Counted from the first letter of the stretch, positions 3,238-28,270 are shown. The stretch is 64,000 nt of DNA from Acidimicrobiales bacterium (GCA_044220495.1 JBGAQY010000001.1:126515-190514), one strand, 5' to 3'. Numbers and translations: made by a program. Notes: generated from the sequence alone by a model not told the origin.

Positions 3238-3258
3238 GTAGCACTGCCGGCGGAGAGA

Positions 3259-8820: not shown

Positions 8821-8955
8821 CCGTCCTCCGTGCTGCGCACAGATAGTCCTTCGGTTTACAGCGGCATTTGAGGGCAAAACCTGAGGCCCAAAGTGCCCCT
8901 AAACAGGGGATTTAGCGATTTTCAATGAAAAATCAGGGCGTTTTGTGCCGTCAGA

Positions 8956-11133: not shown

Positions 11134-11224
11134 GGGCGGCTCACTTGCTGCTCAGCTGAGCGATAGACGGGCTCGAACGACATTAACCCGTACACCTGCG
11201 AAGAGGTCGCCGTTCTTCAGTTCG

Positions 11225-12598
11225 TTAAGCCAGCAGCCGCCTAAGTGCTGCCTGCGGAATCGACACCCAATCAGGTCGATAGGCCTTCTCGTATGCCAAT
11301 TCATACAGCGCTTTTTCGAGTTCGAACGCTCTCAGCAGCAAACTTGCCGCCTCGCCAGTGGGCAAAAGTTCATCAATGCCTTTGACCGACAAGTAGCCGT
11401 GCCTAAATGCCTCGCGGTTGTGCAACTCCCAAGCATCAGCTTGTTGGCGCAAGCTGACTTGGTTGGCAACGTTCTGTTCAGAGATTCCAACAGCCGCCGC
11501 GTAGTGAAACGACCGCAACATTCCCGACACGTCTTTCAACGGCGACGTTGCGCGCACACGTTCACTCAGCGGACGAGCCGGTTCGCCTTCAAAGTCGAAC
11601 ACGTACCAACCAGAAACACTGCGAAGCGTTTGCCCCAAATGAAAGTCACCATGAATTCGACAAGCAACGCCTGCGTTGCTGCCGCTCAACTCACCTACGC
11701 GTTCGATGACAGCCTGCAAGCGTGCACTCTGCGCGTCGTTGAGAGAAGAAAGCTCGCCCTGTAGTGACGCGACCAACGTCGAGGGATCGAAGGGGGCCGA
11801 GCCAAACTCATTGGCGAGCGCCAGATGCAAGCCAGCAGTCACCTCGCCCAGTCGTCGTGCCTCATCACCGAAGTCTCCGCCTGCAGACGCAGGATCGGTC
11901 TCATCGATATACACGCCCGACGGTGAACCAGCGGGCGATGACGCGCCAGTTGTTTCAGCACCAAAGAAGTCGCGCACTGACGCAAGGGCAAGCTTCCAAC
12001 CGTCGGTGCCATCCCACAAATAGGGCTGACAAACGGCGAGATCCCAGTTACCGCGCTGCCATGTCGCTACGACCGGCGCAACGTGTTTGAAACCGTTGTG
12101 TGTCAAGGCCGAAGTGACTTCGAGGTCGGGGTTTGCGCCTTCGTAGAGGCGACGGAAGATCTTGAGAATCAATCGGTTGTCGAACACCAACGACGAGTTC
12201 GACTGCTCAGCGCCAATTGGTCGCACGGTCTTCACTTCTTGATTGCCTTCGGCAATCAAATCGAAGAGCACACGACACAGCACCGAATCAACAAGCGCGT
12301 CATAGGCAACCAACTCTGTTGATCCCGAATTCACCGAACCAATCTCTGCTGTTGCTCGCCCGAGCAAAACTGCACCGAGGTCGTTGCGCTCGCGCAGACC
12401 GACAGGTATTTGGTAGATCGCGCTGCCGTCGACCTCAACCAGCATCCACAACAACATTGGGCTTGCTTCGCGGAACAACTCGTATTCGACAACACGCGCA
12501 ACAGTCGGGGCTTCCTCGGCCGACGAGAACCATCGCTGCTTCGGCAGCCATACCGGCAGCTGCTTCGCCAAACCCTCGAGAACGGTGTCTAAGTTCAT
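11225..12598 (-). CDS. mak: Maltokinase (Mak/Pep2)
   Basis: WLPKQRWF, EQSNSS, RIHGDFHLGQ, DFEGEP, DVSGMLRSFHYAA and KALYELAYE motifs. ATG 12598 overlaps the treS stop (ATGA). Confidence 0.92.
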   Translation of the reverse strand: MNLDTVLEGLAKQLPVWLPKQRWFSSAEEAPTVARVVEYELFREASPMLLWMLVEVDGSAIYQIPVGLRERNDLGAVLLGRATAEIGSVNSGSTELVAYDALVDSVLCRVLFDLIAEGNQEVKTVRPIGAEQSNSSLVFDNRLILKIFRRLYEGANPDLEVTSALTHNGFKHVAPVVATWQRGNWDLAVCQPYLWDGTDGWKLALASVRDFFGAETTGASSPAGSPSGVYIDETDPASAGGDFGDEARRLGEVTAGLHLALANEFGSAPFDPSTLVASLQGELSSLNDAQSARLQAVIERVGELSGSNAGVACRIHGDFHLGQTLRSVSGWYVFDFEGEPARPLSERVRATSPLKDVSGMLRSFHYAAAVGISEQNVANQVSLRQQADAWELHNREAFRHGYLSVKGIDELLPTGEAASLLLRAFELEKALYELAYEKAYRPDWVSIPQAALRRLLA

Positions 12599-14313
12599 GC
12601 GCCCTTGGATGTGGTTGGAGTCGGATCGGTCGACATAGGAGCCGACGGCACAAGCTGGAACCAATAGAACTGATAAGGCCCCAACGTGATGAAGTACGGC
12701 AATTCACCAATTGCCGGGAAGGGCACACGGCCCAACAGCTCAACGGGTGTCCGTCCTTCAAATTGCGCCAGCATCAATTCGACTGGTTGTGCGAAACGCG
12801 ACAGATTGTTTACGCACAAGACGATGTCGTCACCTTCTTGGCGGAAATACGCAAGCACCGACGGGTTCTCGGCCGGCAACACCTCGAATGAACCAGTGCC
12901 AAACAATGGGTGTTGCTTGCGCACTTCGAGCATTCGCTTCATCCAGTGCAATAGCGACGAGGTGTTGCGAATTTGACTCTCGACATTGACCGCTTGGTAT
13001 CCATAAACGGAATCCATGAGCGGTTGCAGATATAGCTGCGCGAAGTCGGCGCGACTGAAACCACCGTTGCGGTCGGGTGACCATTGCATCGGCGTGCGTA
13101 CTGAGTCGCGATCAGGCAAGAAGATGTTGTCGCCCATCCCGATCTCGTCGCCGTAGTAGAGAACCGGGCTGCCGGGGAACGAGAACAAGAATGCGTGCAG
13201 CAATTGCGCGACGCGCAGGTCATTTTCGACAAGCGGAAACAAGCGACGTGAGATGCCGACGTTTGAACGCATGCGTGGGTCTTTCGCGTATTCGGAATAC
13301 ATGTAGTCACGCTCTGAATCAGTAACCATCTCGAGCGTCAATTCATCGTGATTGCGCAAAAACATTCCCCACTGGCAGTTATCGGGGATGTCAGGGGTCT
13401 GCGCCAAGATCTCGGTGATCGGGAAACGCTGTTCGCGACGCACGGCCATGTACATGCGGGGCATCACGGGAAAGTGAAACGCCATCGAGCACTCGTCGCC
13501 GTCGCCGAAGTAGTCGACAACTTCTTCTGGCCATTGATTGGCTTCAGCCAAGATCACGCGACCGGGGTGCGACTCATCGATCTGCTTGCGAAACCACTTC
13601 AAATACTCGTGCGTCTCGGGCAAGTTCTCGCCGTTGGTTCCCGGACGTTCAAACAAATAAGGAATGGCGTCGAGACGCATGCCGTCGAGGCCAAGGTCCA
13701 TCCAAAAACGGGCAACGTTCACCATCTCTTGACGCACTTCGGGGTTGTCGAAGTTCAAGTCGGGCTGGTGACTGAAAAATCGGTGCCAGTAATACTGACG
13801 ACGCGTTGGGTGCCATGCCCAGTTCGACTTCTCGGTGTCGACGAAGATGATGCGCGCTTCGCTATAGAGCTGATCGTCGTCTGACCAGACGTACCAGTCG
13901 TGTTTGGGATTGTCTTTCGACGACGACGATTCAATGAACCAAGGGTGTTGATCAGAAGTGTGGTTCATCACCATGTCGGCGATGATGCGCATGTCGCGCT
14001 TGTGACACTCGGTGATCAACTCCTTCATGTCTTCAACGGTTCCGTAGTCAGGCAACACGTTGTAGTAGTCCTTGATGTCGTAGCCGCCGTCGCGCAAAGG
14101 CGAGTCGTTGAACGGCAGCAGCCACAGGCAATCGACACCCAGCCACTTCAGGTAGTCGAGCTTCATCGTGATGCCACGCAGGTCGCCCGTGCCGTCGTCG
14201 TTCGAGTCGTAGAAGCCGCGAGTGACCACCTCGTAGAACACCGCTCGCTTGAACCAGGTGTGGTCCTGAGAGGCTTCTTTCAGAAGACCGGAGTTCACGG
14301 GCTGGTCAGACAT
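12595..14313 (-). CDS. treS: Trehalose synthase / maltose alpha-D-glucosyltransferase
   Basis: WFKRAVFYEV, SPLRDGGYDI, NHTSDQHPWF, RLDAIPYL, AEANQWP and FLRNHDELTLEMV motifs. Confidence 0.97.
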   Translation of the reverse strand: MSDQPVNSGLLKEASQDHTWFKRAVFYEVVTRGFYDSNDDGTGDLRGITMKLDYLKWLGVDCLWLLPFNDSPLRDGGYDIKDYYNVLPDYGTVEDMKELITECHKRDMRIIADMVMNHTSDQHPWFIESSSSKDNPKHDWYVWSDDDQLYSEARIIFVDTEKSNWAWHPTRRQYYWHRFFSHQPDLNFDNPEVRQEMVNVARFWMDLGLDGMRLDAIPYLFERPGTNGENLPETHEYLKWFRKQIDESHPGRVILAEANQWPEEVVDYFGDGDECSMAFHFPVMPRMYMAVRREQRFPITEILAQTPDIPDNCQWGMFLRNHDELTLEMVTDSERDYMYSEYAKDPRMRSNVGISRRLFPLVENDLRVAQLLHAFLFSFPGSPVLYYGDEIGMGDNIFLPDRDSVRTPMQWSPDRNGGFSRADFAQLYLQPLMDSVYGYQAVNVESQIRNTSSLLHWMKRMLEVRKQHPLFGTGSFEVLPAENPSVLAYFRQEGDDIVLCVNNLSRFAQPVELMLAQFEGRTPVELLGRVPFPAIGELPYFITLGPYQFYWFQLVPSAPMSTDPTPTTSKGA

Positions 14314-14469
14314 GAGTCGTTGGCTTCTTTCCGCTGTATCGATTCACGCCGGCTACCCGACGAAAACCATCTCACTGGGCTGGACTTGTACGCACGGTAG
14401 TCGCGGCCCTAGCCGTTTGTCGGGCCAAAGCCCTAACCAAGACCTGATCAGCCCCCGATCAGCCCTGGA

Positions 14470-16401
14470 TTAGGCCCGGTGAACGTGGAAAATGTGTGCT
14501 GGCTCAGATGGCTCGAGACGCACGTAATTGGCCGGTCCTGACCAGTGGAAGGCACGACCGGTGACCTCGTCGTAAGCCACAAAAGGCTCTTCCCAGCCGA
14601 TGCCAAGTTGCCAAAGGTCCAGGTGAATGGTGGTTTCCTGAGCGTTGTTCGGATCTAGGTTGACCACGACCAGCACGGCGTCTGACCCGTCGACTGACTT
14701 CTTCGAGTACGCAATCATCTGATCGTTGTCAGTGCCGTGGAACCAGATGTTGTGCAACTCGTGCAGGGCGGGGTGATTGCGGCGGATTGAATTGATGTGC
14801 CCAATCCACCCGCTGAGGTTGTGCTCAACGTCAAAGTTTCGATGACGAATCTCGTACTTCTCAGAGTGCAAGTAGTCGGTGTTCTTCTCGGGGTCGAGCG
14901 CCTGGTTCTCCATCAACTCGTAACCGCTGTAGATGCCGTAGTTGGGCACCATCGTCGACGCCAAGATCAATCGGCTCTTGAACGCGCCGACGCCCCCATC
15001 GCGCAGCGGCGGCAACAAGATGTCGTGGGTATTTGGCCAAAAGCTCGGACGCATGAACTCTGAAGACGCCCCCACCGACACTTCGACGCCGTAATCAATC
15101 AGCTCTTGTTTCTGCGTACGCCACGTGAAGTAGGTGTAACTCTGCGTGAAACCAACTTCAGCAAGTTTCGCCATCACCTTTGGACGCGTGAATGCTTCTG
15201 ACAAGAAGATCACGTCGGGGTGTTCAGCTTGCACAGCGGGAATGCACCACGCCCAAAACGCCATTGGTTTGGTGTGCGGATTGTCGACGCGGAAGATGCG
15301 CACACCGTGCGATATCCAGTAATCGAAAATCTCTTTGCACGCGCTCCACAAGGCAACGCGATCGTCTTTGTTCTCTGGCCAGAAGTTGATCGGGACGATG
15401 TCTTGATACTTCTTCGGAGGATTCTCCGCATAAGCAATAGATCCGTCTGGACGGTGATTGAACCATTCGGGGTGTTTGCTCACCCACGGATGGTCGGGGC
15501 TGCATTGCAACGCATTATCTAAAGCAATTTCGAGCCCTAGTTGATTGGCCTTTTTGACCAGCGCGTCGAAGTCTTTGATCGTGCCGAGTGACGGCTCGAT
15601 ATCGGTGTGTCCGCCATCTGATGAACCAATTGCATACGGAACACCGACATCTTCTGGCGTCGATTGCAGTGTGTTGTTTCGACCCTTGCGAAAGCGCTTG
15701 CCGATCGGATGAATCGGCGTCAGATACAGCACGTCGAAGTTCATGTTCGCGATGTATGGCAACGATTCGGTCAAACCTTTGAGGCCACCCCATGAACGGG
15801 GAAACACGCAATACCAAGCACCAAAGCCAGCGCGTGCTCGATCAACCCACAGGCGCATCACTGATGAAACCGTGATGTGTTCATCGGGACTTGGCAACTT
15901 CACCAACTGCGCCGTCTCGTCGGTGACCGCCGACGCAACACGTGCAGTGTGATCAAGCGACTCGTCGCGCAACATGTCGGCGACTTCAGCCAGCTTGGCC
16001 TTCTGCGCCTTCAGGCTTGCCTCGTCGGCGCGTTTCTCGAAGAACAGTGCGCCCTCGACGAGCTCAACCGAGACGTCTTCAAAGGCTGCAAGTTTGACCT
16101 CTAACTTGTGGCGCCAAGTTGCGTACGTGTCTGTCCATGCGCCGACCGCAAATTCGTACATACCAGTCGCGTCAGGAATGAACGCCCCCGCCCAACGGTC
16201 GTTGCCTTGCAAGTAGAGCGGCGCCGAACGCCACGCCCGACCGCCGGCAGGACGCCATCTCACCTGCGCACCCAAGATGTCGTGACCGTCTTTGAAAATG
16301 TCGGCCGACACCTGGACCGTCTCGCCGGCGGTTGCCTTTGCAGGGAACAGTCCAGTTGTCGTCCGTGGATGGACGTCGTCGATCACAATGCGGGCTTTCA
16401 T
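14470..16401 (-). CDS. glgE: Alpha-1,4-glucan:maltose-1-phosphate maltosyltransferase
   Basis: PIHPIG, RKGRNN, QCSPDHPW, YAENPPKKYQDI, FRVDNPHTKP, EAFTRP and SEKYE motifs. Confidence 0.96.
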   Translation of the reverse strand: MKARIVIDDVHPRTTTGLFPAKATAGETVQVSADIFKDGHDILGAQVRWRPAGGRAWRSAPLYLQGNDRWAGAFIPDATGMYEFAVGAWTDTYATWRHKLEVKLAAFEDVSVELVEGALFFEKRADEASLKAQKAKLAEVADMLRDESLDHTARVASAVTDETAQLVKLPSPDEHITVSSVMRLWVDRARAGFGAWYCVFPRSWGGLKGLTESLPYIANMNFDVLYLTPIHPIGKRFRKGRNNTLQSTPEDVGVPYAIGSSDGGHTDIEPSLGTIKDFDALVKKANQLGLEIALDNALQCSPDHPWVSKHPEWFNHRPDGSIAYAENPPKKYQDIVPINFWPENKDDRVALWSACKEIFDYWISHGVRIFRVDNPHTKPMAFWAWCIPAVQAEHPDVIFLSEAFTRPKVMAKLAEVGFTQSYTYFTWRTQKQELIDYGVEVSVGASSEFMRPSFWPNTHDILLPPLRDGGVGAFKSRLILASTMVPNYGIYSGYELMENQALDPEKNTDYLHSEKYEIRHRNFDVEHNLSGWIGHINSIRRNHPALHELHNIWFHGTDNDQMIAYSKKSVDGSDAVLVVVNLDPNNAQETTIHLDLWQLGIGWEEPFVAYDEVTGRAFHWSGPANYVRLEPSEPAHIFHVHRA

Positions 16402-16455: not shown

Positions 16456-16716
16456 TCACTGTCTGCGTTCACCTTGTTCGACGCCGACAGCTGACTCAGT
16501 CGCGGTGTCACCTGCGAGGTCAGCAGCCGGTCGGATCGGTCGCGCTCTCAGCAGTCCACCGATCATGACGCCAAGCCCAACCACGATCAGCGCCGGCACG
16601 CCGACCCAGAACGCCCGGTCTTGTGCCGTTGCGTCAGGCACGAGATACGCGATGCCCAGCCCGACGAAAAGTACTCCGAAGAAGAACGAGATCAAATCAA
16701 ACGAATGTCTTTTCAT
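16456..16716 (-). CDS. Small two-TM membrane protein of the PspC module
   Basis: MKRHSFDLISFFFGVLF start, two hydrophobic helices, ATGA overlap with the upstream PspC gene. Confidence 0.8.
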   Translation of the reverse strand: MKRHSFDLISFFFGVLFVGLGIAYLVPDATAQDRAFWVGVPALIVVGLGVMIGGLLRARPIRPAADLAGDTATESAVGVEQGERRQ

Positions 16717-17894
16717 TGGAAGAACCCCTGACGACGAGATTGACTTTCGACTACGACATGACCGATGCCACTGTGTGCGTCTATTACGTATGTTGCTGCA
16801 CCAAACGCCTGCGGTTGCGATGCCTCATCTTCTGGATTCACACCATCGCGAGGCTCGCGGTCTAGCAACTGCACTTCACCGACTCCGGCAGATCCCTTCA
16901 CCTGATACGCGGCGCCGTAAGGCAGTGTGACGATCAGTTCACCAACGCCAACTTCAGCCTTGACATAGACGATGCCGCGCGCTCCCGTCACGTTGGAAAG
17001 GTCGAGGTTCAACTGGCCAATCCCAAGGCGGTAAGGCGACTCGATGTCAGCTACTTGTCGCGGCGCGTACTGCCGATCACCAATGCCGCCGCGGAATGCC
17101 TCACCGCTTACCGAAGTGAAGGCGAGCATCACGATGAGTATCCACGCAACCCCAAGCAACACCTTGGCCCGCCCAACCCAGGCACCGATCAACAACGCAA
17201 AGCCAATGACGATCGAGATCACGGCAACTGCCTGCTGCAGTGTTATGTCGACCACGTTGAGACGTTCGAGAACCGCCATGACGCCGGCCGCAACGAATGA
17301 CAAGCCAAACGCGAGGGGCGCCAAGAAGGAAGGCTCACGACGTTGCTTCGGAGCGTTGCGTTGATATTGCGCAGCCTGACTTGTCGGCACCCGCATTTCG
17401 GTCGTGTCGTTCAGATTCATCGCGCCACTAACAGTCGTTGCGTCATGAGCTGCCGAGGTCTGAGTGTTCGCGGCACCCATTGCTTTACGATCTCGATCAC
17501 GGGTCGTCAGCAACCAAATGCCGGCGCCAATCAGAAACAATCCCCAAATCGAGGGGCCGTGATCCAAGTCGTTGAAGGCGCCAAAGAACACAACCGTGAG
17601 CCCAATCAGCACAAGCCAACCCCAGTTGTCTCGCATGCGGTCGGCAATGTCGACATCGGGCGGCGAATCTTCGGCCGGCAACACAATCCATGCGACCACG
17701 TAAACAAGAAGGCCAAAGCCACCAAAGAACGAAGCAATCACAAACGCTGCTCGCACGAGGCGCACATCGATATCGAGATATTTGGCAATGCCGCCAGCGA
17801 CACCGGCTACGTATTTGTCTGTCGAACTCGTTGTCAGCCTTTTGTCGACTGACGGCGGTTTTTGGGGTTCCTCAGTTTGTTGTTCTGTATCCAT
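16713..17894 (-). CDS. PspC-domain membrane protein with C-terminal LiaF-like (DUF2154) domain
   Basis: DKYVAGVAGGIAKYLDIDVRLVR (PspC), several TM helices, then YRLGIGQLNLDL / VGVGELIVTLP / GIGHVVV repeats. Confidence 0.85.
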   Translation of the reverse strand: MDTEQQTEEPQKPPSVDKRLTTSSTDKYVAGVAGGIAKYLDIDVRLVRAAFVIASFFGGFGLLVYVVAWIVLPAEDSPPDVDIADRMRDNWGWLVLIGLTVVFFGAFNDLDHGPSIWGLFLIGAGIWLLTTRDRDRKAMGAANTQTSAAHDATTVSGAMNLNDTTEMRVPTSQAAQYQRNAPKQRREPSFLAPLAFGLSFVAAGVMAVLERLNVVDITLQQAVAVISIVIGFALLIGAWVGRAKVLLGVAWILIVMLAFTSVSGEAFRGGIGDRQYAPRQVADIESPYRLGIGQLNLDLSNVTGARGIVYVKAEVGVGELIVTLPYGAAYQVKGSAGVGEVQLLDREPRDGVNPEDEASQPQAFGAATYVIDAHSGIGHVVVESQSRRQGFFQ

Positions 17895-17929
17895 GTCATT
17901 CAGCTTCGTCAGGCGCATGACCAGCGTCT

Positions 17930-17990
17930 ATCGGGTATAGCCCTGAACTAACCCTTAGATCTCTGGGTCGACCTCAGGGACTTTCCCGAT
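17930..17990. promoter_or_regulatory. Pair of imperfect palindromic boxes between the divergent PspC genes, probable response-regulator sites
   Basis: atcgggtatagccctga (17930-17946) and tcagggactttcccgat (17974-17990) are mutually inverted TCAGGG-N5-CCCGAT boxes. Confidence 0.65.
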
Positions 17991-18056
17991 CCAACTCATT
18001 ACCGGAAAGTGCGAGTATCTCATCGTGATATTCGCACCGTTCGGCCCAAGTCATTC

Positions 18057-19283
18057 ATGACTACCTCCGCCGAACCCAAGGTCGAACCCAAACCAAAAAC
18101 CAAGCCTCTGTTTACGAGGAGTAACGATCGCGTCATTGCTGGTGTTGCTGGCGGAATCGCTCAGCGCCTCGACGCCGACCCACTCGTCGTGCGCGCCGTC
18201 TTTGGCGTGCTCACTCTCGCTAACGGAGTCGGGGTCGTTATCTACGCCCTCGCGTGGCTCGCTACAAAAGATGACGAGACGTCCGATCCAGTAACACCGC
18301 GTGAATTCTCACCTCGCGCAACCGGTGGCATCGCCTGCTTGGCGCTCGGCGTGCTTTTAGAGATGCAAGGTTTCGGACTTGTCGTTCCGGCACCGCTGTT
18401 TTGGCCGCTGGCTCTAGCTGGTGTTGGTTCTGCCGTCTTGTGGAGCAGAAACAACCAAAGCGACGGCAACTCAGCAGAGTTACGTCCAGGGTCGAGCCGC
18501 GTTTGGTCGATGTTCGACAGCTCCATTTCGCCACTGCGTCTGCTCATTGGTGGTGTGTTGGTCGTGCTCGGCCTTGGAGCATTCATCGCCAGCAACACGA
18601 GCTTCGCAGCAGCGGGAAGTGTCTTCATTGCACTGCTTGCCGCAAGCGCCGGAGCGGTGTTGATCGTCGGCCCATTTTTGTTGCGCGTCACTCAGCAAAT
18701 GCTCGACGAGCGCCGTCGCCGCATTCGCAGCGACGAGCGCGCCGAGATGGCTGCGCACCTTCACGACTCTGTATTACATACGCTTGCACTCATTCAACGC
18801 GCTGATGCGTCGAACGAGGTCACCAGCCTGGCGCGACGTCAAGAACGCGAGCTTCGTGCATGGCTGCGCGGACGCACGGCTGACACCACCGAATCGCTTA
18901 GTGCTGCTATCGACGACCTCGCCAGCACCGTCGAGCAAGAACTCAACACAACCGTTGAAGCCGTCGTGGTCGGCGATTGCGTTGTCGACGATCGCGTGCG
19001 CTCACTTGTGCTTGCCGCGAAAGAAGCAACCGTCAATGCAGCCCGTCACTCAGGTGCATCAAAAGTTGCGCTGTTTGTTGAAGTCGAGCCCAAGCAAATC
19101 AGCGCGTACATACGCGACGAAGGGCACGGATTCGATCGCAACAACATCGACCCCGATCGCCGAGGCATCAGCGAATCAATCGAAGGTCGCATGCGCCGAA
19201 ACGGCGGCACCGCAGCGATCACCACGACTCCAGGCGAAGGCACCGATGTTGCTTTGCATTTGCCACTCGACGAGCGCTCATGA
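18057..19283 (+). CDS. PspC-domain sensor histidine kinase
   Basis: N-terminal PspC (RVIAGVAGGIA), TM helices, H-box AAHLHDSVLHTL, EATVNAARHSG, RDEGHGFD and GEGTDV motifs. Confidence 0.92.
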   Translation: MTTSAEPKVEPKPKTKPLFTRSNDRVIAGVAGGIAQRLDADPLVVRAVFGVLTLANGVGVVIYALAWLATKDDETSDPVTPREFSPRATGGIACLALGVLLEMQGFGLVVPAPLFWPLALAGVGSAVLWSRNNQSDGNSAELRPGSSRVWSMFDSSISPLRLLIGGVLVVLGLGAFIASNTSFAAAGSVFIALLAASAGAVLIVGPFLLRVTQQMLDERRRRIRSDERAEMAAHLHDSVLHTLALIQRADASNEVTSLARRQERELRAWLRGRTADTTESLSAAIDDLASTVEQELNTTVEAVVVGDCVVDDRVRSLVLAAKEATVNAARHSGASKVALFVEVEPKQISAYIRDEGHGFDRNNIDPDRRGISESIEGRMRRNGGTAAITTTPGEGTDVALHLPLDERS

Positions 19284-19915
19284 CCATCAAGATCTTCTTG
19301 GTCGACGACCATCAGTTCTTCCTCTCGGGCCTCAAAGCCGAGTTGGGTGACGAATTCGAAATCGTCGGCACCGCGTCCGAAGTCAACGAAGCAACCCAGG
19401 CCATCGAACAAACACAACCCGACGTGGTGCTGCTCGACGTGCACCTGCCCGGCGGCAACGGACAACGGGTGCTCGAACAGACCCGCGGCCACTTGCCCAA
19501 CACGCGCTTCCTGGCGCTATCGGTGTCAGATGCACCCGAAGACGTAATTGGTGTCATCAGAGCGGGCGCACGTGGATATGTCACGAAAACCATCTCGCCG
19601 GCCGACCTCGCCGATGCCATCCGACAGATTCACGAAGGTGAGACCGTCTTCTCGTCACGTCTTGCCGGCTTTGTGCTCGATGCATTCGCAGCGGAAGACA
19701 TTCCTTCAGCCGATGCCGAGCTAGACCTGTTGACCGCGCGCGAAAAAGACGTGCTGCGTCACATTGCGCGAGGCTTCACCTACAAACAGGTCGCTCGCAA
19801 TCTCGATGTGTCGGTCAAAACAGTCGAAACCCACATGTCATCGGTGCTGCGCAAACTGCAGCTGTCGAGTCGACATGAGCTCACGGTGTGGGCGACCAAT
19901 CGGAGAATCGTATGA
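19280..19915 (+). CDS. NarL/LuxR-family response regulator
   Basis: LVDDH, VLLDVHLP, GYVTK, and HTH LTAREKDVL...SVKTVETH. ATGA overlap with the kinase. Confidence 0.95.
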   Translation: MTIKIFLVDDHQFFLSGLKAELGDEFEIVGTASEVNEATQAIEQTQPDVVLLDVHLPGGNGQRVLEQTRGHLPNTRFLALSVSDAPEDVIGVIRAGARGYVTKTISPADLADAIRQIHEGETVFSSRLAGFVLDAFAAEDIPSADAELDLLTAREKDVLRHIARGFTYKQVARNLDVSVKTVETHMSSVLRKLQLSSRHELTVWATNRRIV

Positions 19916-21096
19916 GTAACACAATCGACGTCACCTGCGGGCCATTGGTCGCCGGCGGCGACTCGCTCGTTCGTCGCGAAGGCGAAAAAGTTCTGTTCGT
20001 TGAAGGCGGCTTGCCCGGCGAGGCCGTCAAGGTGCACGTCGATCGTGAGCGCAAAGACCTTGCCAACGCGCACGTCACCGAAGTTGTGCACGCGTCGCCG
20101 CATCGCGTTGCGCCGCCATGCCCGATGTTCAGCGCTGGTTGTGGTGGGTGCCAGTGGCAGCACATCGACGCCAGCGCACAACACGACTACAAGATGGGCA
20201 TTGTCGTTGACGCTCTAACACGCATCTCCAAAATGCCCGAGCCACCGGTGCGCTTTGCCGGATCGGTTCCAACCTTGGGTTACCGCACCACAATGCACGT
20301 CGGAGTTGTCGATGGTAAGGCCGCTTTGCGTCGCCGCCACACAAACGAGTTGCAAGCTCTCGACCTGTGCATGATCTCGCACCCATTGCTCGAAGAGCTC
20401 ATCATCGACGGTTATTTCGGCAGCGCAAACGAAGTGACTTTGCGGGTTTCTGCATCAACCGGCGAACGCATTGCTTATGTCAAAGGCGACATCAGCGATG
20501 TACGTCTGCCAAAAGACGTCACCATCACGCCGAACGGTCGCAACGCTTCCATTCACGAAGACGTGCTCGGCCGCAAGTTCCGCGTATCAGCTCGTTCGTT
20601 CTTTCAATCAGGGCCCGCCGCTGCCGAGCTCGTCGCGAAGACGGTTGATCAAGTTGTTCCGCAAGAGGTCGGCTGGATTGTCGACGCGTACGCCGGCGTC
20701 GGCCTTCTGTGCGGAGTCACCGGCGAAGAGCGCGACTGTCAGGTCACTGCCGTTGAGCAAGATCGCTCGGCTGTTGGCGATGCGCGCCACAACCTTGCCG
20801 ACCTTGCGTCAGAAGTAATCGAGGCCGAAGTGGCAACTGTTTCTCTCTCAGGCGACTCATCGCCCGACGTCGTCATTGCCGACCCGTCGCGCACCGGCCT
20901 CGGTAAATCGGCGGCCAAGACGCTTGCCGGTTTGGGCGCCAACGACTTCGTGCTCGTTAGCTGCGACCCCGCCTCGCTCGCGCGCGACAGCGTGTTATTG
21001 ACCGAAGCGGGTTACCAACTCACTGATGTCGCGGTGCTCGACCTGTTCCCGCAGACACATCACGTCGAGACCGTCTCGCATTTCGTGCGCGCGTAA
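19912..21096 (+). CDS. TRAM-domain RNA (uracil-5)-methyltransferase, RlmD/TrmA family
   Basis: GLPGE, CPMFSAGCGGCQWQH (Fe-S), SFFQ, DAYAGVG, VSCDPASLARD and DLFPQTHHVE motifs. Confidence 0.92.
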   Translation: MSNTIDVTCGPLVAGGDSLVRREGEKVLFVEGGLPGEAVKVHVDRERKDLANAHVTEVVHASPHRVAPPCPMFSAGCGGCQWQHIDASAQHDYKMGIVVDALTRISKMPEPPVRFAGSVPTLGYRTTMHVGVVDGKAALRRRHTNELQALDLCMISHPLLEELIIDGYFGSANEVTLRVSASTGERIAYVKGDISDVRLPKDVTITPNGRNASIHEDVLGRKFRVSARSFFQSGPAAAELVAKTVDQVVPQEVGWIVDAYAGVGLLCGVTGEERDCQVTAVEQDRSAVGDARHNLADLASEVIEAEVATVSLSGDSSPDVVIADPSRTGLGKSAAKTLAGLGANDFVLVSCDPASLARDSVLLTEAGYQLTDVAVLDLFPQTHHVETVSHFVRA

Positions 21097-21100
21097 CTGC

Positions 21101-22405
21101 TTACAAACTTCGAGCCAAACCCGAATCTGTCGACGGCAACAAACGAGGACTCACTAAGGCGTCAATGTCTCGAGGGCGAATTTGGTTGACTCGTGCCGTG
21201 TGTCCGTAAGGCTCGCTGAGCACCCACCCGCTGTCGTCACGACGCAAGTCAGCACACCGAGGTGCCATCGATAGTTGCGGACTGTTACTCGGCAACCCTG
21301 CTCGCGTTTCGAGCCGTTGGTGGCGCCACAAACCCATCGGCCCATCGAGCACGAATTCACTCGGTTTGGCCACGCCCACCGAATCACGCGGAACGGCAGC
21401 AATCAGAAAATCATGCGCTGCCGCGTCGGCCAATCCGGCAGCAATCTCACTACGGTGAGTACCAGCAACCGGCCGAGCGAAGTATCCGTCGAGCACGGCC
21501 GTAATCGGCAGCCGTTGGTTTCGCGATGAACGCACCGCACGGGCATGCGCGCCGATGCTCATGAACAGAGAGTCGACAATCATCCGTTCGTTCTGCAACT
21601 GCGTCTCATTGATGATGTCGCCGCGCTCGTTGCGGCGCGCGTCACGTCCGAGAACGACCAGAAGGTCGTGAGACTTCGCGAAACTGGCAACGTCGAAACG
21701 CTGCGCAGAGCGAGCAAAACCTTCAGCCGGACGATGCACCGCCTGAAACACACCAAGCCAATCGGCAACAAGTCTCGCCGCTTCGGCGCGGACTCTTTCG
21801 GACCGACCGAGCGGTAAAACAGCAGTTGCGTAGTCACGACGGCCAGGCTCGCCAAGGTCAAGGCGCTCACGCATGCGATCCCACACGCCTTTGGTCGAAC
21901 TCGTGAAGTAGTTCAGCATTTCTATGCTCTGCGCGACACTCAGGCGTTCGCGAAACGCTGTGCGCAACAAGACGGGCAACAGCACGCGAGCAACTCCGTT
22001 GGGCGTCGACGCCTTCCCAGCCATCTGTCCGTGTGGGTCTGCCATGTCGGAGACGATTCGCGTGATGGCAACACGAGAGGGTTCATCAACGGCAGCGTCA
22101 ACGATTGACCATTCGGGCCACTTGGCTTTCACGACCGGATCGCTACCCAGCCAGAACACGTCACCGCGATCAACGCGAGTCTCGGCCACGCGAGCTGCCA
22201 ATGCACGATTGCGCGTGTACAAAACAGCAGGGCCCGAATCTTCACTGTTGATTACAAAGCTGGCGACAATGCTTTCGACTTCTCGTCGTGTTTGCGCTTC
22301 TGACTCGGGTCGATGGGCATCAATAACAACCGCCATGTTGTCGAGCAGCGGCAGAGACACAGTGCCTGAGTCGCCAACTTCGGCAGTGAGCTTCAGCCGG
22401 CCCAT
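21101..22405 (-). CDS. Degenerate VirD4/TraG coupling-protein-like protein (paralogue 3)
   Basis: GPAVLYT...R..RGDVFWL...WSIVD...FDVASFAKSHDLLVVLG...ITAVLDG follows the actinobacterial T4CP motif order, but there is no GxxxxGKT and no DE. Confidence 0.65.
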   Translation of the reverse strand: MGRLKLTAEVGDSGTVSLPLLDNMAVVIDAHRPESEAQTRREVESIVASFVINSEDSGPAVLYTRNRALAARVAETRVDRGDVFWLGSDPVVKAKWPEWSIVDAAVDEPSRVAITRIVSDMADPHGQMAGKASTPNGVARVLLPVLLRTAFRERLSVAQSIEMLNYFTSSTKGVWDRMRERLDLGEPGRRDYATAVLPLGRSERVRAEAARLVADWLGVFQAVHRPAEGFARSAQRFDVASFAKSHDLLVVLGRDARRNERGDIINETQLQNERMIVDSLFMSIGAHARAVRSSRNQRLPITAVLDGYFARPVAGTHRSEIAAGLADAAAHDFLIAAVPRDSVGVAKPSEFVLDGPMGLWRHQRLETRAGLPSNSPQLSMAPRCADLRRDDSGWVLSEPYGHTARVNQIRPRDIDALVSPRLLPSTDSGLARSL

Positions 22406-22410
22406 AGCTA

Positions 22411-23790
22411 CTAGGCCAAGCTCCGCGCTGCGGTGAAGTCTTGTCGGTGTTCAGCTATCACGGCCTCAAGAGTCATCGGCTGCACACTACCCACGTCAGA
22501 GAGTGTCCAGTCATCGGTCGACTGCGCCGGCCTGTCGTTTAGTGCTAGTCGAGCGATGTGCTCAGCCGACGAGCGCGGTGCGAAGAAGGCTGCTGAATGT
22601 GGGAAGCCAACCGGAGCAACCCTCCCTGTACTAATCCATGGATTCGAGACAACGGTCGTGCCGCTCTTTGAAAGTCGCACCAGCGCCTCATCGACTCGCA
22701 CCGACTGAGGCAGAAATCGGTCGAGCACGAGCGTTGTCGACAGCGCCGTGCCTTTCGACAACACATACGGCTTCACAGCTGCTTCTTGAATTAGCGAGAG
22801 AAGCACCTCAACGGCGGCTCGACTGGGTTCCCGTGGCGGTGAACCAACAACGATGACCATGTCGCGACTCTCAACAAATGCATGCGGATCAAAGTCATTC
22901 GTCGCAATTCCTTCATGGGCGTTGTCGAGCTGTTCCCACGGTTGGAGCCAATACGCCATCGTTTCGAGAACTGCCGGGTTGGCAAAACGCTCGATCGAGC
23001 GCAGATTCTTCAACATGTCCTCAACGGAATACTCACGCTCGTGCGCAGTGATGAGCGCATGCACAAGCGATTTTTGAGCATTGGCGCGCACGGTTCCTTC
23101 ATTGTCGCCACCGGCGAGAGGGGCAACCCTGCCGCGCATAGCAACGGCCAAACACTCAGCGATGTGACGCGCCATCTCAACACCAGTCGCTTCACGAATG
23201 GGCGACCAACGCATCAGGTTCGTGTCAGACGGCAACTCATCCGCCGGCGACAACCAAGCAACCGAACCGCCCGCTGCAATGCGCTGATCGCGCACTGCCC
23301 TTGCGAGTTGTGCATCAGGAGTTACTAGAACGGTCGGACCAGGCGCCATTAACGCAGTCGACGCGAGAACACCTTGCACTTGCGAGCTCGCTGATTGATG
23401 CGTCGGAACATCGATCACGAGCGGACGACGATCAGAAATCTCAGCGAAGCGACGATCAGCTAGCGCGACGTGCAAGTTGACAAGCGGACCGTGAGGTTGA
23501 TCCGGCACCCAGTGACCAGAGCCGACAGCGGCGACTTCCTCACCCGAGAAAAGCACCCGCCTCGACGCTTGCCGCGTGACGCTGGCTCGGCGTTGCCCGT
23601 AATTGCGAGCGACTCGGTCATCAGACGCCGCTGCTTGATCAAGGCTGCCAAGTTCTTGGCGCACTCGGGCGAGGGCAGCGGTCCATCGGTTGCGGCTGAA
23701 CTCTCCTCGTCTTGCTCTCGCAGGGTCAGCGCTGTCGTGTTTGGGAAGTGCCACCCGGTCAAAGGTACCGACGACTCGGGGGCGCGCCAA
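22411..23790 (-). CDS. Degenerate VirD4/TraG coupling-protein-like protein (paralogue 2)
   Basis: PGPTVLVT...R..AGGSVAWLSP...RWSPI...FDPHAFVESRDMVIVVG...TTLVLDR. TTG start with GAGGT RBS. Confidence 0.7.
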   Translation of the reverse strand: MARPRVVGTFDRVALPKHDSADPARARRGEFSRNRWTAALARVRQELGSLDQAAASDDRVARNYGQRRASVTRQASRRVLFSGEEVAAVGSGHWVPDQPHGPLVNLHVALADRRFAEISDRRPLVIDVPTHQSASSQVQGVLASTALMAPGPTVLVTPDAQLARAVRDQRIAAGGSVAWLSPADELPSDTNLMRWSPIREATGVEMARHIAECLAVAMRGRVAPLAGGDNEGTVRANAQKSLVHALITAHEREYSVEDMLKNLRSIERFANPAVLETMAYWLQPWEQLDNAHEGIATNDFDPHAFVESRDMVIVVGSPPREPSRAAVEVLLSLIQEAAVKPYVLSKGTALSTTLVLDRFLPQSVRVDEALVRLSKSGTTVVSNPWISTGRVAPVGFPHSAAFFAPRSSAEHIARLALNDRPAQSTDDWTLSDVGSVQPMTLEAVIAEHRQDFTAARSLA

Positions 23791-23809
23791 AGCACCTCGT
23801 CAAGTGCGT

Positions 23810-25181
23810 TTACAGCTGGCGCCCGAGCGTCTTGGGAACGTTCATCAGGTCATCTAGAACTCTGATCATTGCCCCTTTCGACGGCGTGCGATGGCGCGAA
23901 TCGACCTCGGGCAACTGCCACTTCAATGACTTGTCGACATGCACCACCAGAGGCACGACCGGACGTTTCGCCCTCGGACCATTAGCTAGTCGCTCTGCCC
24001 TATCCACGGTCACGGCAATTAGTGACTCAGCGATTGCCGTTTGAGTCGGCCCGTCAGGATCACCAAACACGATCACATCGCGACTCGCCAAGAAGGGTGT
24101 CGATACTCAACTGGTAGCTGGTACTCGTGCTGTGACTGCTTTCCAAGATTGCCCAAGACGACAACAGATGCGCAGCGCACGCAGCCACCTCGGGAGCGCG
24201 CTTGTGCGCGCCATCGTCTTTCGACATTGACGTACGCGCAAAGTCGACGGTAGCGATGTCACGCATCGACATGTGGGCCTTGGCGCCTTTGTGCAGCATC
24301 CGTTCGACCAATTCACGCGCTGTGTCGATGACCTTCTGCTCGTGCTTGGTGCGCCCAAAGTTAAGGCGCGAGCGGGCCCAAGCCTTACTAAGAACTTTTG
24401 CCACACGGGCCGCGCCATCACGACCAGTCACGTGTTCAATCAATGAGAATCGCAACGGAAGAGTCGCGTCAGGAATCGCAGCGTCATAGTCGGCCATCCA
24501 TACGACTGTGCGTCCAGCAGCCTGATACGCGCGCGCCGCCGTCAACGCCCAATTGCTGCTGCGAGTAAAAACAACGGCCGGCCCATCCCCAACAAACTCT
24601 CTACTAACTGGCCGCGCCGTTTTCATCGAGCGCCGACACTAATAGCCCGCGCGAACGTGCATGTCGCCGCCGCAACCGCACAACGATCAACACCAGACAC
24701 TCGACAAGCGCAAACGCACCAAGAGCTAGATGCACATAAGCAACATCTCTCAGCGTCGCCGACCCTTGCTCGACGAACGTGTACAAACACGCTGACCGTT
24801 TACATCAAACCCGTGACTTGTCACAGTCTGCTTCTTGCCAATACCCCAGCACATTCGGGCCACAATGGCCATCTCGGCGATCCATAACAGGTATCCGTAG
24901 AGCGAGCGCCTACTGAGTAGGTAGCCCGCCACAAATACACACGCAGCGACAGTCGTGAGAATCACCGTCGCCGCAATCGCCATCGGAAACACGATGGCGA
25001 ACAACAAGCTCCCAATCATCCCGAGCAACGCCAACGATAGATAAGCAACAGCGATTATCGTCGTCGGGTAGAGCCAGCGAGAGACGTCAATCACTCTACG
25101 GTGACCACTCGCCACCTCTATCGAGTCGTGGCCTATTGAGTCCTGCCCTATTGAGTCCTGGCCGATTGACTCCTCGCTCAT
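23810..25181 (-). pseudogene. Frameshifted membrane-anchored coupling-protein-like gene (paralogue 1), split into four ORFs
   Basis: ORFs 24750-25181, 24604-24786, 24060-24626 and 23810-24091 overlap and can be joined by small indels near 24785, 24590-24612 and 24096. The joined product has TM helices then GPAVVFT...RFSLI...IDT(F)LASRDVIVFG...LVVHVD, about 457 codons. Confidence 0.6.
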
Positions 25182-25206
25182 CGCAGAAGTGTACGCCGGT
25201 CGTTTC

Positions 25207-25514
25207 GTGCGGACTCGGAGTCAACGTTGACCTTGACTCCACGCCAGAAGATCGCCACAAGTAGTCGAAACGTTCAACCGGTAACGCCACGGCGACAACG
25301 CCGTCATCGCGTACACAACGACAGACGCATTGGTGAAGTCCGACTCAGAACCCTGGATTCGCGTCGACGGCGTTTGGAGAAGCGCACTTTTTTGTTAGGC
25401 CCAACCCAGAAACCGCATGCAAACCGGTTACTCAACGTGCTCGCTCAGCATCGCGCCGGCGTTGGTGCGGAGTCGGAGTCAACGTTGACCTTGACTCCAC
25501 CCGAGAAGGTCGCC
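25207..25514. repeat. Two 50-bp direct repeats (25207-25256, 25465-25514) with a palindromic core
   Basis: Identical core GGAGTCAACGTTGACCTTGACTCC at 25217-25240 and 25475-25498, 258 bp apart. Confidence 0.9.
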
Positions 25515-25810
25515 GCACGTAACCAACACCAAGGGCGAACCGCACAACCATTGACATCAGTCACTTGACACGCGCCACCGCGGCCCTGGTCGGTATGCAC
25601 AAGCAGTCCGCAACTCGCCTACCGCTGCTCGCGTATCGACCGCTGCGCGCCGATACGATGCTCCGCTATACGGGTAGAAATACCGACCGCAGACGCCGCG
25701 GCTTTCTCACGCACCTTCACGAGCGCCGACGGGATCCCCGATCAACGGCCTCGCATTATTTGGAGCTCGCGAGCTGGCTGTCGCTGAGCGACGCTGGCGC
25801 CAGCCAGCCC

Positions 25811-28270
25811 CTAGGCGGGGCGGGCTGGGGTGGGTTCGATGTTCCAGATGTCTTTCGCGTATTCGGCAATGGTGCGGTCGGAACTAAAGACGCCAGAGTT
25901 CGCGATGTTGGCAATGCACATCTCGGCCCACTTGCTGCGATCTTTGAACATCTCGTCGGCACGCTTGTGCGCGTCGGCGTAGCTCTGGAAGTCGAGCAGC
26001 ACCATGAAACGGTCGCCCTCGCTCAGCAGTGAGTCGTAAAGCGGACGGAACACGTTGTAGTCACCTTGCTCAACTTGCTCGCTCAGCATTGCGTCGAGCA
26101 CACGCTTGATTGCGGGGTTCGAGTCGTAGAACTCGTATGGGTTGTATGAGTGCTCAGCTTGTAGACGTTGCACTTCGGCAACCTCGGCGCCGAACAACAC
26201 AAAGTTCTCTTCGCCAACCTGCTCACGGATTTCGACGTTTGCACCATCGAGAGTTCCGATAGTCACAGCACCGTTGAGCGCGAACTTCATGTTTCCCGTA
26301 CCCGATGCTTCAGTACCCGCAGTCGAGATCTGCTCAGACAAGTCAGCCGCCGGCATGATGTATTCAGCCAACGAAACTCGGTAATCAGGCAAGAACACAG
26401 CCTTGAGCTTCTTGTTGGTCTGCGGATCACCGTTGATCAAGCTCGCAACATTGTTGATGAACTTGATGATCAACTTTGCCGTCATGTAACCCGGTGCAGC
26501 TTTGGCCGCAAAGACAAACGTGCGCGGCGGCACATCGAGGTTGGGGTTGTCTTTGAGCTCTAAGTAGCGGTGCAAGATATGCAGCGCGTTGAGCGTCTGA
26601 CGCTTGTATTCGTGAAGACGCTTGGCCTGCACATCAAAGATCGAACTCGGGTCGACATCAACGCCAGTGTCAGCCTTGATCACAGCAGCAAGTTGACGCT
26701 TCTTCGTTTCTTTGACTTCGAGGAACTGCTTTTGGAACTCGGCGTCTTTAGCCAACGGTGCCAAGCCCTTGAGCTCGTCGAGATCAGTGATGAATCCGTC
26801 GCCAATTCGTGAAGAGATAAGCGCTGACAACTCTGGATTCGACGCCAGCAACCATCGGCGTTGCGTGATGCCGTTGGTCTTGTTCTGGAAGCGGTCAGGC
26901 CACAGCTCGTAGAAGTCTTTGAACAACGTTTCCTTGAGCAACTCAGAGTGCAACGCAGCAACACCATTAGTCGTGTGCGAGCCAACAACTGAAAGGTGAG
27001 CCATGCGCACGTGCGCGTCGGGCCCCTCTTCGACAATTGCCATGCGTTGCGCACGCTCGTGGTCTTCAGGGAACTTGGCGGTCACGAGTTTGGTGAGACG
27101 GTTGTTGATCTCGTGGATGATTTGCAAGTGGCGAGGCAGCAAGCGCTCAAACAAGCGCACGGCCCAACGCTCGAGCGCCTCGGGCATCAGAGTGTGGTTT
27201 GTGTACGCGCACGTTGCTTGCGTGATCTTCCATGCGTCTTCCCAATCGAGGCCTTCCTCATCCATCAAGATGCGCATCAGTTCAGCAACCGACAACGCCG
27301 GATGCGTGTCATTCATCTGCACGGCAACCTTGCCAGCAAACCCACGAATGTCTTGGTGAGTCGACTTGTAGCGGCGAACGATGTCGTGAAGTGATGCAGC
27401 AATGAAGAAGTACTGCTGCTTCAAGCGCAGCTCTTTACCTTGCTCGATGTTGTCGTTCGGATACAGCACCTTCGAGATGTACTCAGACGAAATGCGCTTC
27501 TCGTATGAACGAACGTATTCACCGTTATTGAAGAACTGAAGATCGAAGTCTTCAACCGCGCGCGCTGACCACAAACGCAACGTGTTGACGGTTCCGTTTT
27601 GGTAACCAACGACCGGATAGTCATAAGGCACAGCAACAACGGTCTCGTTGCCAACCCAACGGGTGATCTGACGACCCTCGGCGTTGGTTTCGTGGATGAC
27701 GCTTCCACCGAACTGGATCGGCGTGCGCATTTCGGCGCGCTCGATCTCCCACGGGTACATGTTGCGCAACCAGTTGTCGGGCTGCTCGACCTGCCATCCG
27801 CCACGAATCTCTTGGCGGAAGATGCCGTAGTCGTAACGAATGCCGTAGCCGTAACCAGGAAGCGCCAGTGTCGCCATGGAATCCAAGAAACACGCAGCCA
27901 AACGACCGAGACCACCGTTACCCAGACCAGCATCGCGCTCCATGTCGGTGACTTCGTCCCACGTCATGCCGAGGTTCTCAATTGCCTTGCGCACAGGACC
28001 GTCGAGGCCGAGGTTGATGATGTTGTTGGCGAAAGCGCGCCCGAGTAGGTATTCGAGGCTCAAGTAATAGACACGCTTTGAATCACGTTGGTAGTACGTC
28101 TGACTCGTGCGACTCCAGTCATCGACCAACTGATCACGGATTGCCAGAGCCAGTGAGTAATACCTGTCTCGGTCAGTGGCGCTGAACTCATCTTTCGCCA
28201 TCGTGAAGCGAACGTGATCGGCAGTGCCGCGTTCGATGGATTCGGGCGTTTGGTTGGGAGCGGGGCTCAA
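25811..28270 (-). CDS. glgP: Glycogen/starch phosphorylase (GT35)
   Basis: DAGLGNGGLGRLAACF, NDTHP, YTNHTL, NKTNGIT, KRLHEYKRQ and PLP site EASGTGNMK. AGGAG precedes the TTG start. Confidence 0.97.
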   Translation of the reverse strand: MSPAPNQTPESIERGTADHVRFTMAKDEFSATDRDRYYSLALAIRDQLVDDWSRTSQTYYQRDSKRVYYLSLEYLLGRAFANNIINLGLDGPVRKAIENLGMTWDEVTDMERDAGLGNGGLGRLAACFLDSMATLALPGYGYGIRYDYGIFRQEIRGGWQVEQPDNWLRNMYPWEIERAEMRTPIQFGGSVIHETNAEGRQITRWVGNETVVAVPYDYPVVGYQNGTVNTLRLWSARAVEDFDLQFFNNGEYVRSYEKRISSEYISKVLYPNDNIEQGKELRLKQQYFFIAASLHDIVRRYKSTHQDIRGFAGKVAVQMNDTHPALSVAELMRILMDEEGLDWEDAWKITQATCAYTNHTLMPEALERWAVRLFERLLPRHLQIIHEINNRLTKLVTAKFPEDHERAQRMAIVEEGPDAHVRMAHLSVVGSHTTNGVAALHSELLKETLFKDFYELWPDRFQNKTNGITQRRWLLASNPELSALISSRIGDGFITDLDELKGLAPLAKDAEFQKQFLEVKETKKRQLAAVIKADTGVDVDPSSIFDVQAKRLHEYKRQTLNALHILHRYLELKDNPNLDVPPRTFVFAAKAAPGYMTAKLIIKFINNVASLINGDPQTNKKLKAVFLPDYRVSLAEYIMPAADLSEQISTAGTEASGTGNMKFALNGAVTIGTLDGANVEIREQVGEENFVLFGAEVAEVQRLQAEHSYNPYEFYDSNPAIKRVLDAMLSEQVEQGDYNVFRPLYDSLLSEGDRFMVLLDFQSYADAHKRADEMFKDRSKWAEMCIANIANSGVFSSDRTIAEYAKDIWNIEPTPARPA

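Follow-up and report, generated by a model that had tools for sequence, protein, structure and literature searches.

Conjugation, and hence much horizontal gene flow, is gated by coupling proteins. In the type IV coupling proteins (T4CPs) of the actinobacterial VirD4/TraG type (PF02534 and PF12696), such as a protein of 637 amino acids (aa) encoded on contig C36 of the genome studied here, the P-loop is followed by a GP-V-x-x-S/T strand, a G-x-V-W/V-x-DP motif, a WSP motif, a helical insert, and a Walker B strand with its aspartate, while a two-helix anchor is located at the N-terminus. The helical region is the substrate-facing domain in TrwB/VirD4-type proteins. In this study, we analyzed 64,000 nucleotides (nt) of DNA from an uncultured Acidimicrobiales species of bioreactor origin (GCA_044220495.1, JBGAQY010000001.1:126515-190514), a stretch to which we refer as the window at its full length. 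On the minus strand, positions 21101-25181 harbor a block of three units in one orientation, designated copies A, B, and C in 5' to 3' order, in which the same order of elements can be followed after the position of the P-loop. We consider it probable that this block is an operon-like row of three highly diverged T4CP-derived paralogues, which have lost the residues of the motor and would be kept for a non-catalytic role.

Copies A (23810-25181, minus strand) and B (22411-23790, minus strand) are separated by 19 nt (23791-23809), copies B and C (21101-22405, minus strand) by 5 nt (22406-22410). Copy B has a TTG start and encodes a soluble protein of 459 aa, the clearest T4CP homologue of the block, while copy C has an ATG start and encodes a soluble protein of 434 aa, the most diverged of the three. 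Copy A consists of four segments lying in different frames in the present assembly. Its N-terminal piece (24750-25181, minus strand), an open reading frame (ORF) of 143 aa, comprises a short repeat-rich head and then a hydrophobic stretch of 55 residues (residues 37-91, up to 2.39 on the KD19 scale), which suffices for two membrane helices like those at the N-terminus of real T4CPs; no hydrophobic stretch of at least 1.6 on this scale was detected in copies B and C, where the anchor is absent. A bridging segment of 66 codons in another frame (24607-24804, minus strand) would, in our own reading, supply a strand and a degenerate P-loop equivalent before the GP motif, collinear with beta1 and the P-loop of T4CPs. 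The middle piece of 192 codons, designated A2 (24060-24638, minus strand), includes the helical region in addition to the GP, W, and [RE][WF]S motifs, and in the C-terminal piece of 98 codons (23810-24106, minus strand), the S.D..V.G block is accompanied by a strand whose last residues, Asp-Lys, occupy the Walker B position.

The translations of all three copies share a GP motif (GPAVLYT, GPTVLVT, and GPAVVFT), a W motif (GDVFW, GSVAW, and TVVW), a third motif with the variants EWSIV, RWSPI, and RFSLI, an FD...S.D..V.G block, which crosses a frame break in copy A, and terminal strands reading ITAVLDG, TTLVLDR, and LVVHVDK. In copy C, the most diverged, the GP and EWS motifs and the FD...S.D..VLG block are preserved, and the Walker B position reads Asp-Gly. 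The layout of the T4CP nucleotide-binding core is retained in all three copies: a first strand and the GP-x-V-x-x-T strand that follows the P-loop precede the W and WS motifs, after which come a helical (all-alpha) insert, the strand leading to Walker B, and the aspartate of that motif. An initial annotation of this DNA had described three co-oriented genes with gaps of 19 and 5 bp, the shared motifs, and transmembrane helices in the first copy only; the ORF coordinates, the translations, and a hydrophobicity scan of A, B, and C agreed with it on each of these points. As to the three genes themselves, B and C were found to be open throughout, while copy A does not form one ORF here and is frame-broken at three homopolymers; the initial annotation had read across these breaks, though it did credit two copies only with long ORFs.

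A search of five translated pieces of the block revealed neither a GxxxxGK[ST] Walker A motif nor GK[ST] in any of them, and the alignment columns agreed with the claim of the initial annotation that Walker A is absent and that the position of the Walker B glutamate is occupied by G, R, or K. All 23 real T4CPs aligned with the copies have [GH]K[TS] and Asp-Glu, and in an alignment of 28 T4CPs both motifs were found in 27, the 28th row being without that region. At the Walker A columns, where the T4CPs read G-P...[GH]K[TS], copy B reads V-P...Q-V and copy C D-A...Q-T; the P-loop position of copy B is occupied by V-P-T-H-Q-S-A-S-S-Q, which contains no lysine. Every row has the Walker B aspartate (D357 in B, D306 in C), and the residue following it, a glutamate in 23 of 23 T4CPs, is arginine in B, glycine in C, and lysine in A. 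In TraD, replacement of the Walker A lysine (K198T) is reported to have abolished both DNA and protein transfer (PMC3338209). The loss of the motor residues is well supported, and since both motifs are lost and the TraD mutant in the Walker A lysine abolishes transfer, the three copies are predicted to be pseudo-ATPases unable to bind and hydrolyze ATP by the canonical mechanism.

For the descent of the copies, we used a T4CP profile made from 28 coupling proteins of the same class, all relatives of the resident T4CP on contig C36 (two duplicate rows were dropped); such relatives were present in 24 of 201 genomes of the class. When the complete set of 45,305 six-frame genome segments was searched with this profile, rank 1 went to the real T4CP and rank 2 to copy B (E 3.3e-7, 30.7 bits), followed by a T4CP-superfamily protein on contig C105, and the next match had an E value of 0.2. 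Against the 1260 segments of the window, B reached E 9e-9, with A2 at rank 2 (E 0.015). Comparison of the paralogue profile with the T4CP profile by hhalign resulted in a probability of 85% and E 6.4e-6 over 227 columns, which begin at the GP motif, cross the helical insert and the Walker B strand (LVLDR versus LLIVLDEA), and reach the next strand. In the reverse test, a profile of the three copies only was searched against 400 other genomes of the order and gave matches in 14; among 11 loci fetched, nine encode T4CPs (E <= 1e-55 to the T4CP profile), each with a GK[ST] P-loop, and two do not. Alignment-free comparison with the ESM-Atlas found T4CP clusters (PF02534, PF12696, and PF10412) at 0.93-0.95 among the neighbors of both B and C; every named family was of T4CP type, and 19 of 30 matches, for B and C each, were unnamed clusters of about 365-460 aa, which supplied the nearest neighbors.

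As for copy C, BLASTP against the resident T4CP gave E 0.028 at the equivalent position, and a HMMER profile of T4CPs together with B and A2 found C first after its training rows (E 0.0036, next match 0.012). With hhalign, C scored 34.9 against the same set, a value reached by none of 30 shuffles (maximum 28.9), and 26.3 against B and A2 alone (shuffle maximum 20.8), the latter over a different, collinear region. All local alignments fell collinearly on the same T4CP columns. The initial annotation had proposed descent from an actinobacterial VirD4/TraG-type coupling protein, and the profile, hhalign, reverse-profile, and ESM evidence bears this out: such descent appears well supported for copy B, the case for copy A is good, and copy C is very probably of the same origin.

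The three copies are also related to each other, if distantly, at a mutual identity of about 20-27%. BLASTP between B and A2 resulted in E 4e-6 with 25% identity over 158 aa, and both were reciprocal best non-self phmmer matches (E about 2e-4) among 12,411 six-frame genome segments of at least 90 aa searched with default filters. Between B and C, a single local BLASTP match (E 7e-4) was found over the FD...VVG block, while C alone had no significant phmmer match in this set of segments.

AlphaFold2 (AF2) models of B and C showed helices at residues 197-291 and 101-223, respectively, in the all-alpha insert, which is also spanned by the hhalign columns; the use of T4CPs in the alignment biases these models. 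The predicted local distance difference test (pLDDT) values of the cores were 62-94 for B and 57-89 for C, with confident cores at residues 135-360 and 25-300 and poor ends. Foldseek searches with these models returned Cag-beta and TrwB as top matches (B: 8dol with E 5e-6, 1gl7/1gki with E about 1e-4; C: 8dol with E 5e-4), at TM-scores of 0.33-0.40 over the whole query and a sequence identity of 10-14%. A structural comparison with TrwB/VirD4 had been suggested with the initial annotation; the match itself was obtained, but since the input alignment consisted of T4CPs, the result is circular and indicates compatibility with the fold, not independent proof of it. Prediction of a complex between B (residues 120-400) and C (residues 20-350) scored 0.01 against a mark of 0.32 and is usable neither for nor against binding. 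The hetero-oligomeric ring put forward in the initial annotation is hypothetical, as are the decoy and secretion-adaptor roles suggested with it.

Copies B and C have longer open frames than their composition would suggest, with chance probabilities of about 2e-7 for 459 codons and 3e-7 for 434 codons, and the other five frames across both copies contain 6-31 stops. In addition, we compared contigs from two sequencing runs, X1 (probably the source sample) and X4 (from another study), with the window over positions 19888-28270. In A and B, 19 distinct variant sites were identified, of which 13 are synonymous and six non-synonymous in the proposed frames, including those of the 'broken' copy A, and 15 are at third codon positions. 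Compared with a neutral synonymous expectation of 25%, the binomial probability is 1e-4 (transition bias is not in this model), and the ratio of non-synonymous to synonymous polymorphism (pN/pS) is about 0.16. This excess of 13 to 6 points to purifying selection on A and B, and the block is likely kept by selection, as the initial annotation had suggested from the long ORFs; simple decay had been linked there to a ratio of non-synonymous to synonymous substitution (dN/dS) near 1, and the value between strains of about 0.16 refers to A and B only. No other species was found to carry the family, which limits its generality and precludes an orthologue-based dN/dS.

Copy A differs in its state between the runs. 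All three of its frame lesions fall in homopolymers. At the T-run at 24784/24785 (T3 versus T4), both X1 and X4 are one base longer, whereby the anchor frame continues into 24804-24607, and at the C-run at 24095-24097, X4 is one base shorter, which brings the middle and C-terminal pieces into one frame, while X1 is identical to the window. A third shift is inferred at the A-run at about 24621-24624, where X1 equals the window and the site lies outside the coverage of X4. The variant at 24658 is synonymous in the frame of the bridging segment. Contigs of X1 end at about 23938/24014 and 25113/25211 with lower depth there, and these breaks, together with the homopolymer differences within copy A, suggest strain heterogeneity or local assembly trouble. 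Because the homopolymer lesions are partly absent from other runs, copy A is either partly mis-assembled here or polymorphic for inactivation, i.e., being lost in some strains; with all three sites in frame, it would encode an anchored protein of about 455 aa. From the mostly synonymous variants along the proposed frame path, we would say that copy A was constrained until recently.

A Pfam scan of 39 ORFs of the window detected no family of relaxases, VirB4 proteins, integrases, or transposases, no tRNA gene was found in the window, and no flanking direct repeats marking an island were seen. The position of the block among housekeeping genes without conjugation machinery in the window was thereby confirmed as initially described. 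A search for a type IV secretion system (T4SS) elsewhere in the genome, proposed at the same time, was successful: contig C36 harbors a compact T4SS cluster (C36:3159-13109) that encodes an intact T4CP, a VirB4-like ATPase (P-loop_TraG/AAA_10), a membrane protein that weakly matches EccE, a ParA-like ATPase, a TrbL/VirB6-like protein, and two unknown proteins, flanked by GNAT, PD-(D/E)XK, Ppx, and enolase genes. The resident T4CP of 637 aa carries GPTQSGKT and IVLDEAAN and adjoins the VirB4-like ATPase.

Under the favored reading, the copies would act without catalysis, via the retained helical substrate-receptor region and their protomer surfaces, and membrane tethering would be achieved through copy A or through a real T4CP. 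The bound partners would be those of a T4CP, i.e., the relaxase-DNA substrate, accessory proteins, or the channel ATPase, with the outcome that transfer is tuned and most likely restrained, be it via the T4SS on contig C36 or with regard to incoming elements. Concerning this outcome, we infer that restraint or tuning of transfer is to be preferred, while a positive adaptor role appears about as likely and plain decay less likely.

Several results weigh against a retained family of T4CP descent. None of the T4CP models of Pfam and NCBIfam (PF02534, PF12696, and PF10412 included) matched any of the five pieces even at E <= 10, and no copy was listed at this threshold for T4SS-DNA_transf or TraG-D_C, the Pfam models initially proposed as a check; likewise, phmmer of B and C against PDB sequences gave nothing at E <= 10. 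Under the T4CP profile, copy C reached only E 6.2 among the window segments, which is not significant, yet it falls on collinear columns, and the single-sequence hhalign values of C and A2 against T4CPs (E about 0.007) mean little alone because reversed sequences reach 0.013-0.017. At the C-terminal ends of B and C, 75-130 residues have no match and a pLDDT below 50, and the C-terminal part of the RecA-like domain may therefore be gone. Copy A has three frame lesions in the window, two of them also in run X1. The base composition of the block resembles its surroundings, with the GC content at third codon positions (GC3) of B and C (0.58-0.60) at the low end compared with neighboring genes (0.60-0.72). 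The variant set is small and contig-based with some contigs at a depth below 5, includes no site in copy C, and is incomplete, as one piece of X4 has 14 differences of which three are listed.

The distribution of the copies weighs in the same direction. In 5.8 billion protein clusters (the 'longer' and 'shorter' length classes left out), B and C matched only themselves, and B had no relative outside its own species in 1.84 billion representative proteins. None of 40 relatives contained B, tblastn of B against plasmids gave no match, and among contigs from JGI metagenomes, 188 matches to the pattern were obtained, none of which was confirmed. Near-identical DNA was present in sequencing runs of two studies, with no RNA run among those listed, which has no bearing on expression. 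The three-copy profile revealed no dead copies in 400 genomes of the order, and the homologous tandem arrays for which a search in relatives had been suggested were found neither there nor in the 40 relatives. A keyword search of the open-access literature turned up no description of natural T4CP paralogues without Walker motifs, which is weak evidence. A repetitive protein of 781 aa matched by B (E 5e-5, eight short stretches) was taken as repeat noise.

Weighed against the same data, it appears unlikely that the block is wreckage, i.e., what is left of a duplicated T4CP gene or of a conjugative element integrated long ago, without function, heading to loss and with open frames that are transient. 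Orphan status in every database searched, the vanished catalytic motifs and unrecognizable C-terminal parts, the frame lesions of copy A in the window and X1, and the slightly low GC3 would fit such an origin, as would the density of variants between the window and X1: the block has 10 sites in about 4 kb, compared with 1 in 1.2 kb for the methyltransferase gene and 0 in 2.8 kb for glgP with its spacer. However, despite a mutual identity of about 20-27%, copies B and C were free of stops over their full lengths, most variants in A and B (13/19) are synonymous, the spacing of the genes is tight, and no other remains of an element (integrase, relaxase, repeats, or tRNA) were found at the borders; moreover, copy A is unbroken in X4 at both lesion sites covered by that run. 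A role as positive accessory subunits is of similarly low probability. In this case, the copies would serve as adaptors or receptors for the active T4CP of the C36 T4SS and widen or organize substrate recruitment, in line with the presence of a T4SS cluster with one intact T4CP in the genome, with the helical region as the best-kept part of the copies, and with the membrane anchor of copy A. The block and the cluster are unlinked, though, and located on different contigs, and the T4CP type is sporadic in the class (24/201 genomes) while dead copies were found in none of the genomes searched.

A decoy function seems doubtful to us: a domesticated, membrane-tethered trio of dead proteins would capture relaxase-DNA substrates or cap channel ATPases and so limit conjugation, an immunity-like function of the fertility-inhibition kind derived from the motor protein of the element itself, and fast evolution would account for the lack of detectable relatives. 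With respect to anti-conjugation factors, PADLOC gave nothing beyond a weak JetB match of A2 (E 0.008). Finally, the shared motifs could be coincidental and the proteins unrelated to T4CPs, belonging, e.g., to another P-loop-like or helical family, which we consider very improbable. The curated libraries were silent, B showed a weak match to an ABC ATPase (E 0.046), and the AF2 and Foldseek results are biased by the T4CP alignment; on the other hand, the T4CP profile places B second in the whole genome (E 3.3e-7), the reverse profile led to T4CPs at nine of 11 fetched loci, the ESM features of B and C led to T4CP families, and the local alignments are collinear on the same T4CP columns. For copy B, a chance resemblance or another fold therefore appears largely refuted by these comparisons. 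Kinship of B with ABC ATPases was rejected: the match, which concerns the part from Walker B to the H-loop of a protein of the same genome, was judged a P-loop-fold or chance resemblance. Non-catalytic T4CP descendants remain the favored explanation of the block.

Searches of the five pieces against Pfam, NCBIfam, PADLOC, and PHROGs yielded chance-level rows only, among them NMN_transporter (E 0.004, membrane piece), the JetB match of A2 mentioned above, CDC45, and TrbC_conju (E 0.82). An Rfam scan of 20500-26500 gave a match to CcsR1 at 24938-25009 (minus strand) in the anchor-coding part of copy A, which at 22.4 bits versus a gathering threshold of 65.3 (E 0.041) was assigned to chance.

Two further sets of T4CP-like proteins were observed. 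The protein at C105:7707-10166, the third-ranking match of the T4CP profile, is a second T4CP-superfamily protein of 805 aa (TraG-D_C 30.7 bits, T4SS-DNA_transf 24.7 bits). Its P-loop (GSTGSGKS) is intact, and it is extended by a long stretch at the N-terminus. In five genomes from one family of the same order, short T4CP-like frames of 374-485 aa were identified, one of them inside a longer frame of 875-1109 aa, with two matches per genome. The match to T4CPs begins at about position 171-199 of the 638 profile positions, so that the N-terminal membrane region is not included, and the GK[ST] and DE motifs are intact. Short frames lacking the anchor, like B and C, thus also occur among the real T4CP-like ORFs of this order.

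Regarding the surroundings of the block, the window has the gene content of a core chromosome. An RNA methyltransferase gene is convergent with copy C, and glgP, TerC, M48 peptidase, and LemA genes follow beyond the block. Further genes of the window encode a GH57 enzyme, GlgB, a maltokinase, TreS, GlgE, two PspC-domain proteins (one a histidine kinase), a LuxR-type response regulator, the ATP synthase operon, RF1, PrmC, Sua5, Rho, and enzymes of threonine/lysine biosynthesis. The sole mobile-type gene seen in the window encodes a DUF222 and HNH endonuclease protein (60460-61746, minus strand). The GlgE-pathway and glycogen genes (262-16401) are separated from glgP (25811-28270) by the PspC and two-component genes, the methyltransferase gene, and the block. 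In the closest relative, homologues of glgE and treS abut the methyltransferase gene and nothing block-like follows, while two further relatives have only the methyltransferase gene in common with this locus. At 16713-19915, a divergent pair of PspC-domain genes, one with LiaF-like parts and the other a histidine kinase followed by the LuxR-type regulator, forms a LiaFSR-like envelope-stress module. The gene at 3259-8877 (minus strand) encodes a protein of 1872 aa with about 15 SdrD B-like repeats as well as CarboxypepD_reg/SpaA-like domains, which is probably a large surface adhesin.

A spacer of 630 nt (25182-25810) separates copy A, at its start, from the end of glgP, and the promoter of the block, if any, should be located there; a scan of the spacer for promoters and terminators found one promoter-like site, whereas shuffled sequence averages 1.5, and hence provided no evidence. 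The spacer contains palindromic repeats at 25204-25263 and 25462-25521. The repeat is about 35 nt long with the core GAGTCAACGTTGAC and GGAGTC/GACTCC arms, has 22 matches in the genome at no more than one mismatch, occurs on twelve other contigs as well (C14, C15, C21, C22, C33, C47, C52, C56, C67, C78, C86, and C91), often in pairs 100-260 nt apart, and looks like an intergenic element of the repetitive extragenic palindrome (REP) or miniature inverted-repeat transposable element (MITE) kind.

In comparison with known systems, the actinobacterial VirD4/TraG T4CPs are closest to the block in the order of their elements. Unlike them, the copies have neither the Gly/Lys/Thr of Walker A nor the Glu of Walker B, the C-terminal 'TVWQD...NNHR...SGxSD' part of T4CPs is unrecognizable, no VirB4, VirB6, or relaxase gene is adjacent, the scores are below Pfam thresholds, and three genes in tandem occur in place of one. 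TrwB of plasmid R388 and Cag-beta, the VirD4 of H. pylori, which were the best Foldseek matches of the B and C models, are solved proteins that bind nucleotide. With regard to method, curated profile libraries missed these proteins, while a T4CP profile from the same class and language-model features recovered them.

Weakened copies of translocation ATPases that are kept for regulation or substrate binding are known from the second and third FtsK-like domains of EccC/EssC in type VII secretion and from the duplicated VirB4 of Rickettsiales. These are located in the same polypeptide or locus and are widely conserved, whereas the block is unlinked and was found in one species only. The fertility-inhibition factors PifC, FipA, and Osa target the T4CP and are plasmid-borne; to our knowledge, they are not T4CP homologues. 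They would represent the functional class of the block if the decoy reading were right.

If the block is functional, a cell can keep non-catalytic descendants of a conjugation motor outside any conjugation locus, and such proteins would help to study how substrate recognition can be uncoupled from translocation, or how a host may restrain conjugation. In practical terms, the weight of this is limited, as the block was found in one uncultured species only and its function is putative. The nearest experimental counterpart is TraD K198T of plasmid R1, likewise a T4CP without the P-loop lysine, which is reported to be made but not to support transfer of DNA or protein (PMC3338209). That protein is a single-residue laboratory mutant of an otherwise intact T4CP on its own plasmid, while the copies show natural loss of both motifs, extreme divergence, triplication, and no linkage to conjugation genes. 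Judged by their sequences, the three copies would be naturally occurring pseudo-ATPases of coupling-protein descent, present in triplicate and without linkage to conjugation genes, and, if functional, they would parallel in nature the Walker A mutants made in the laboratory.

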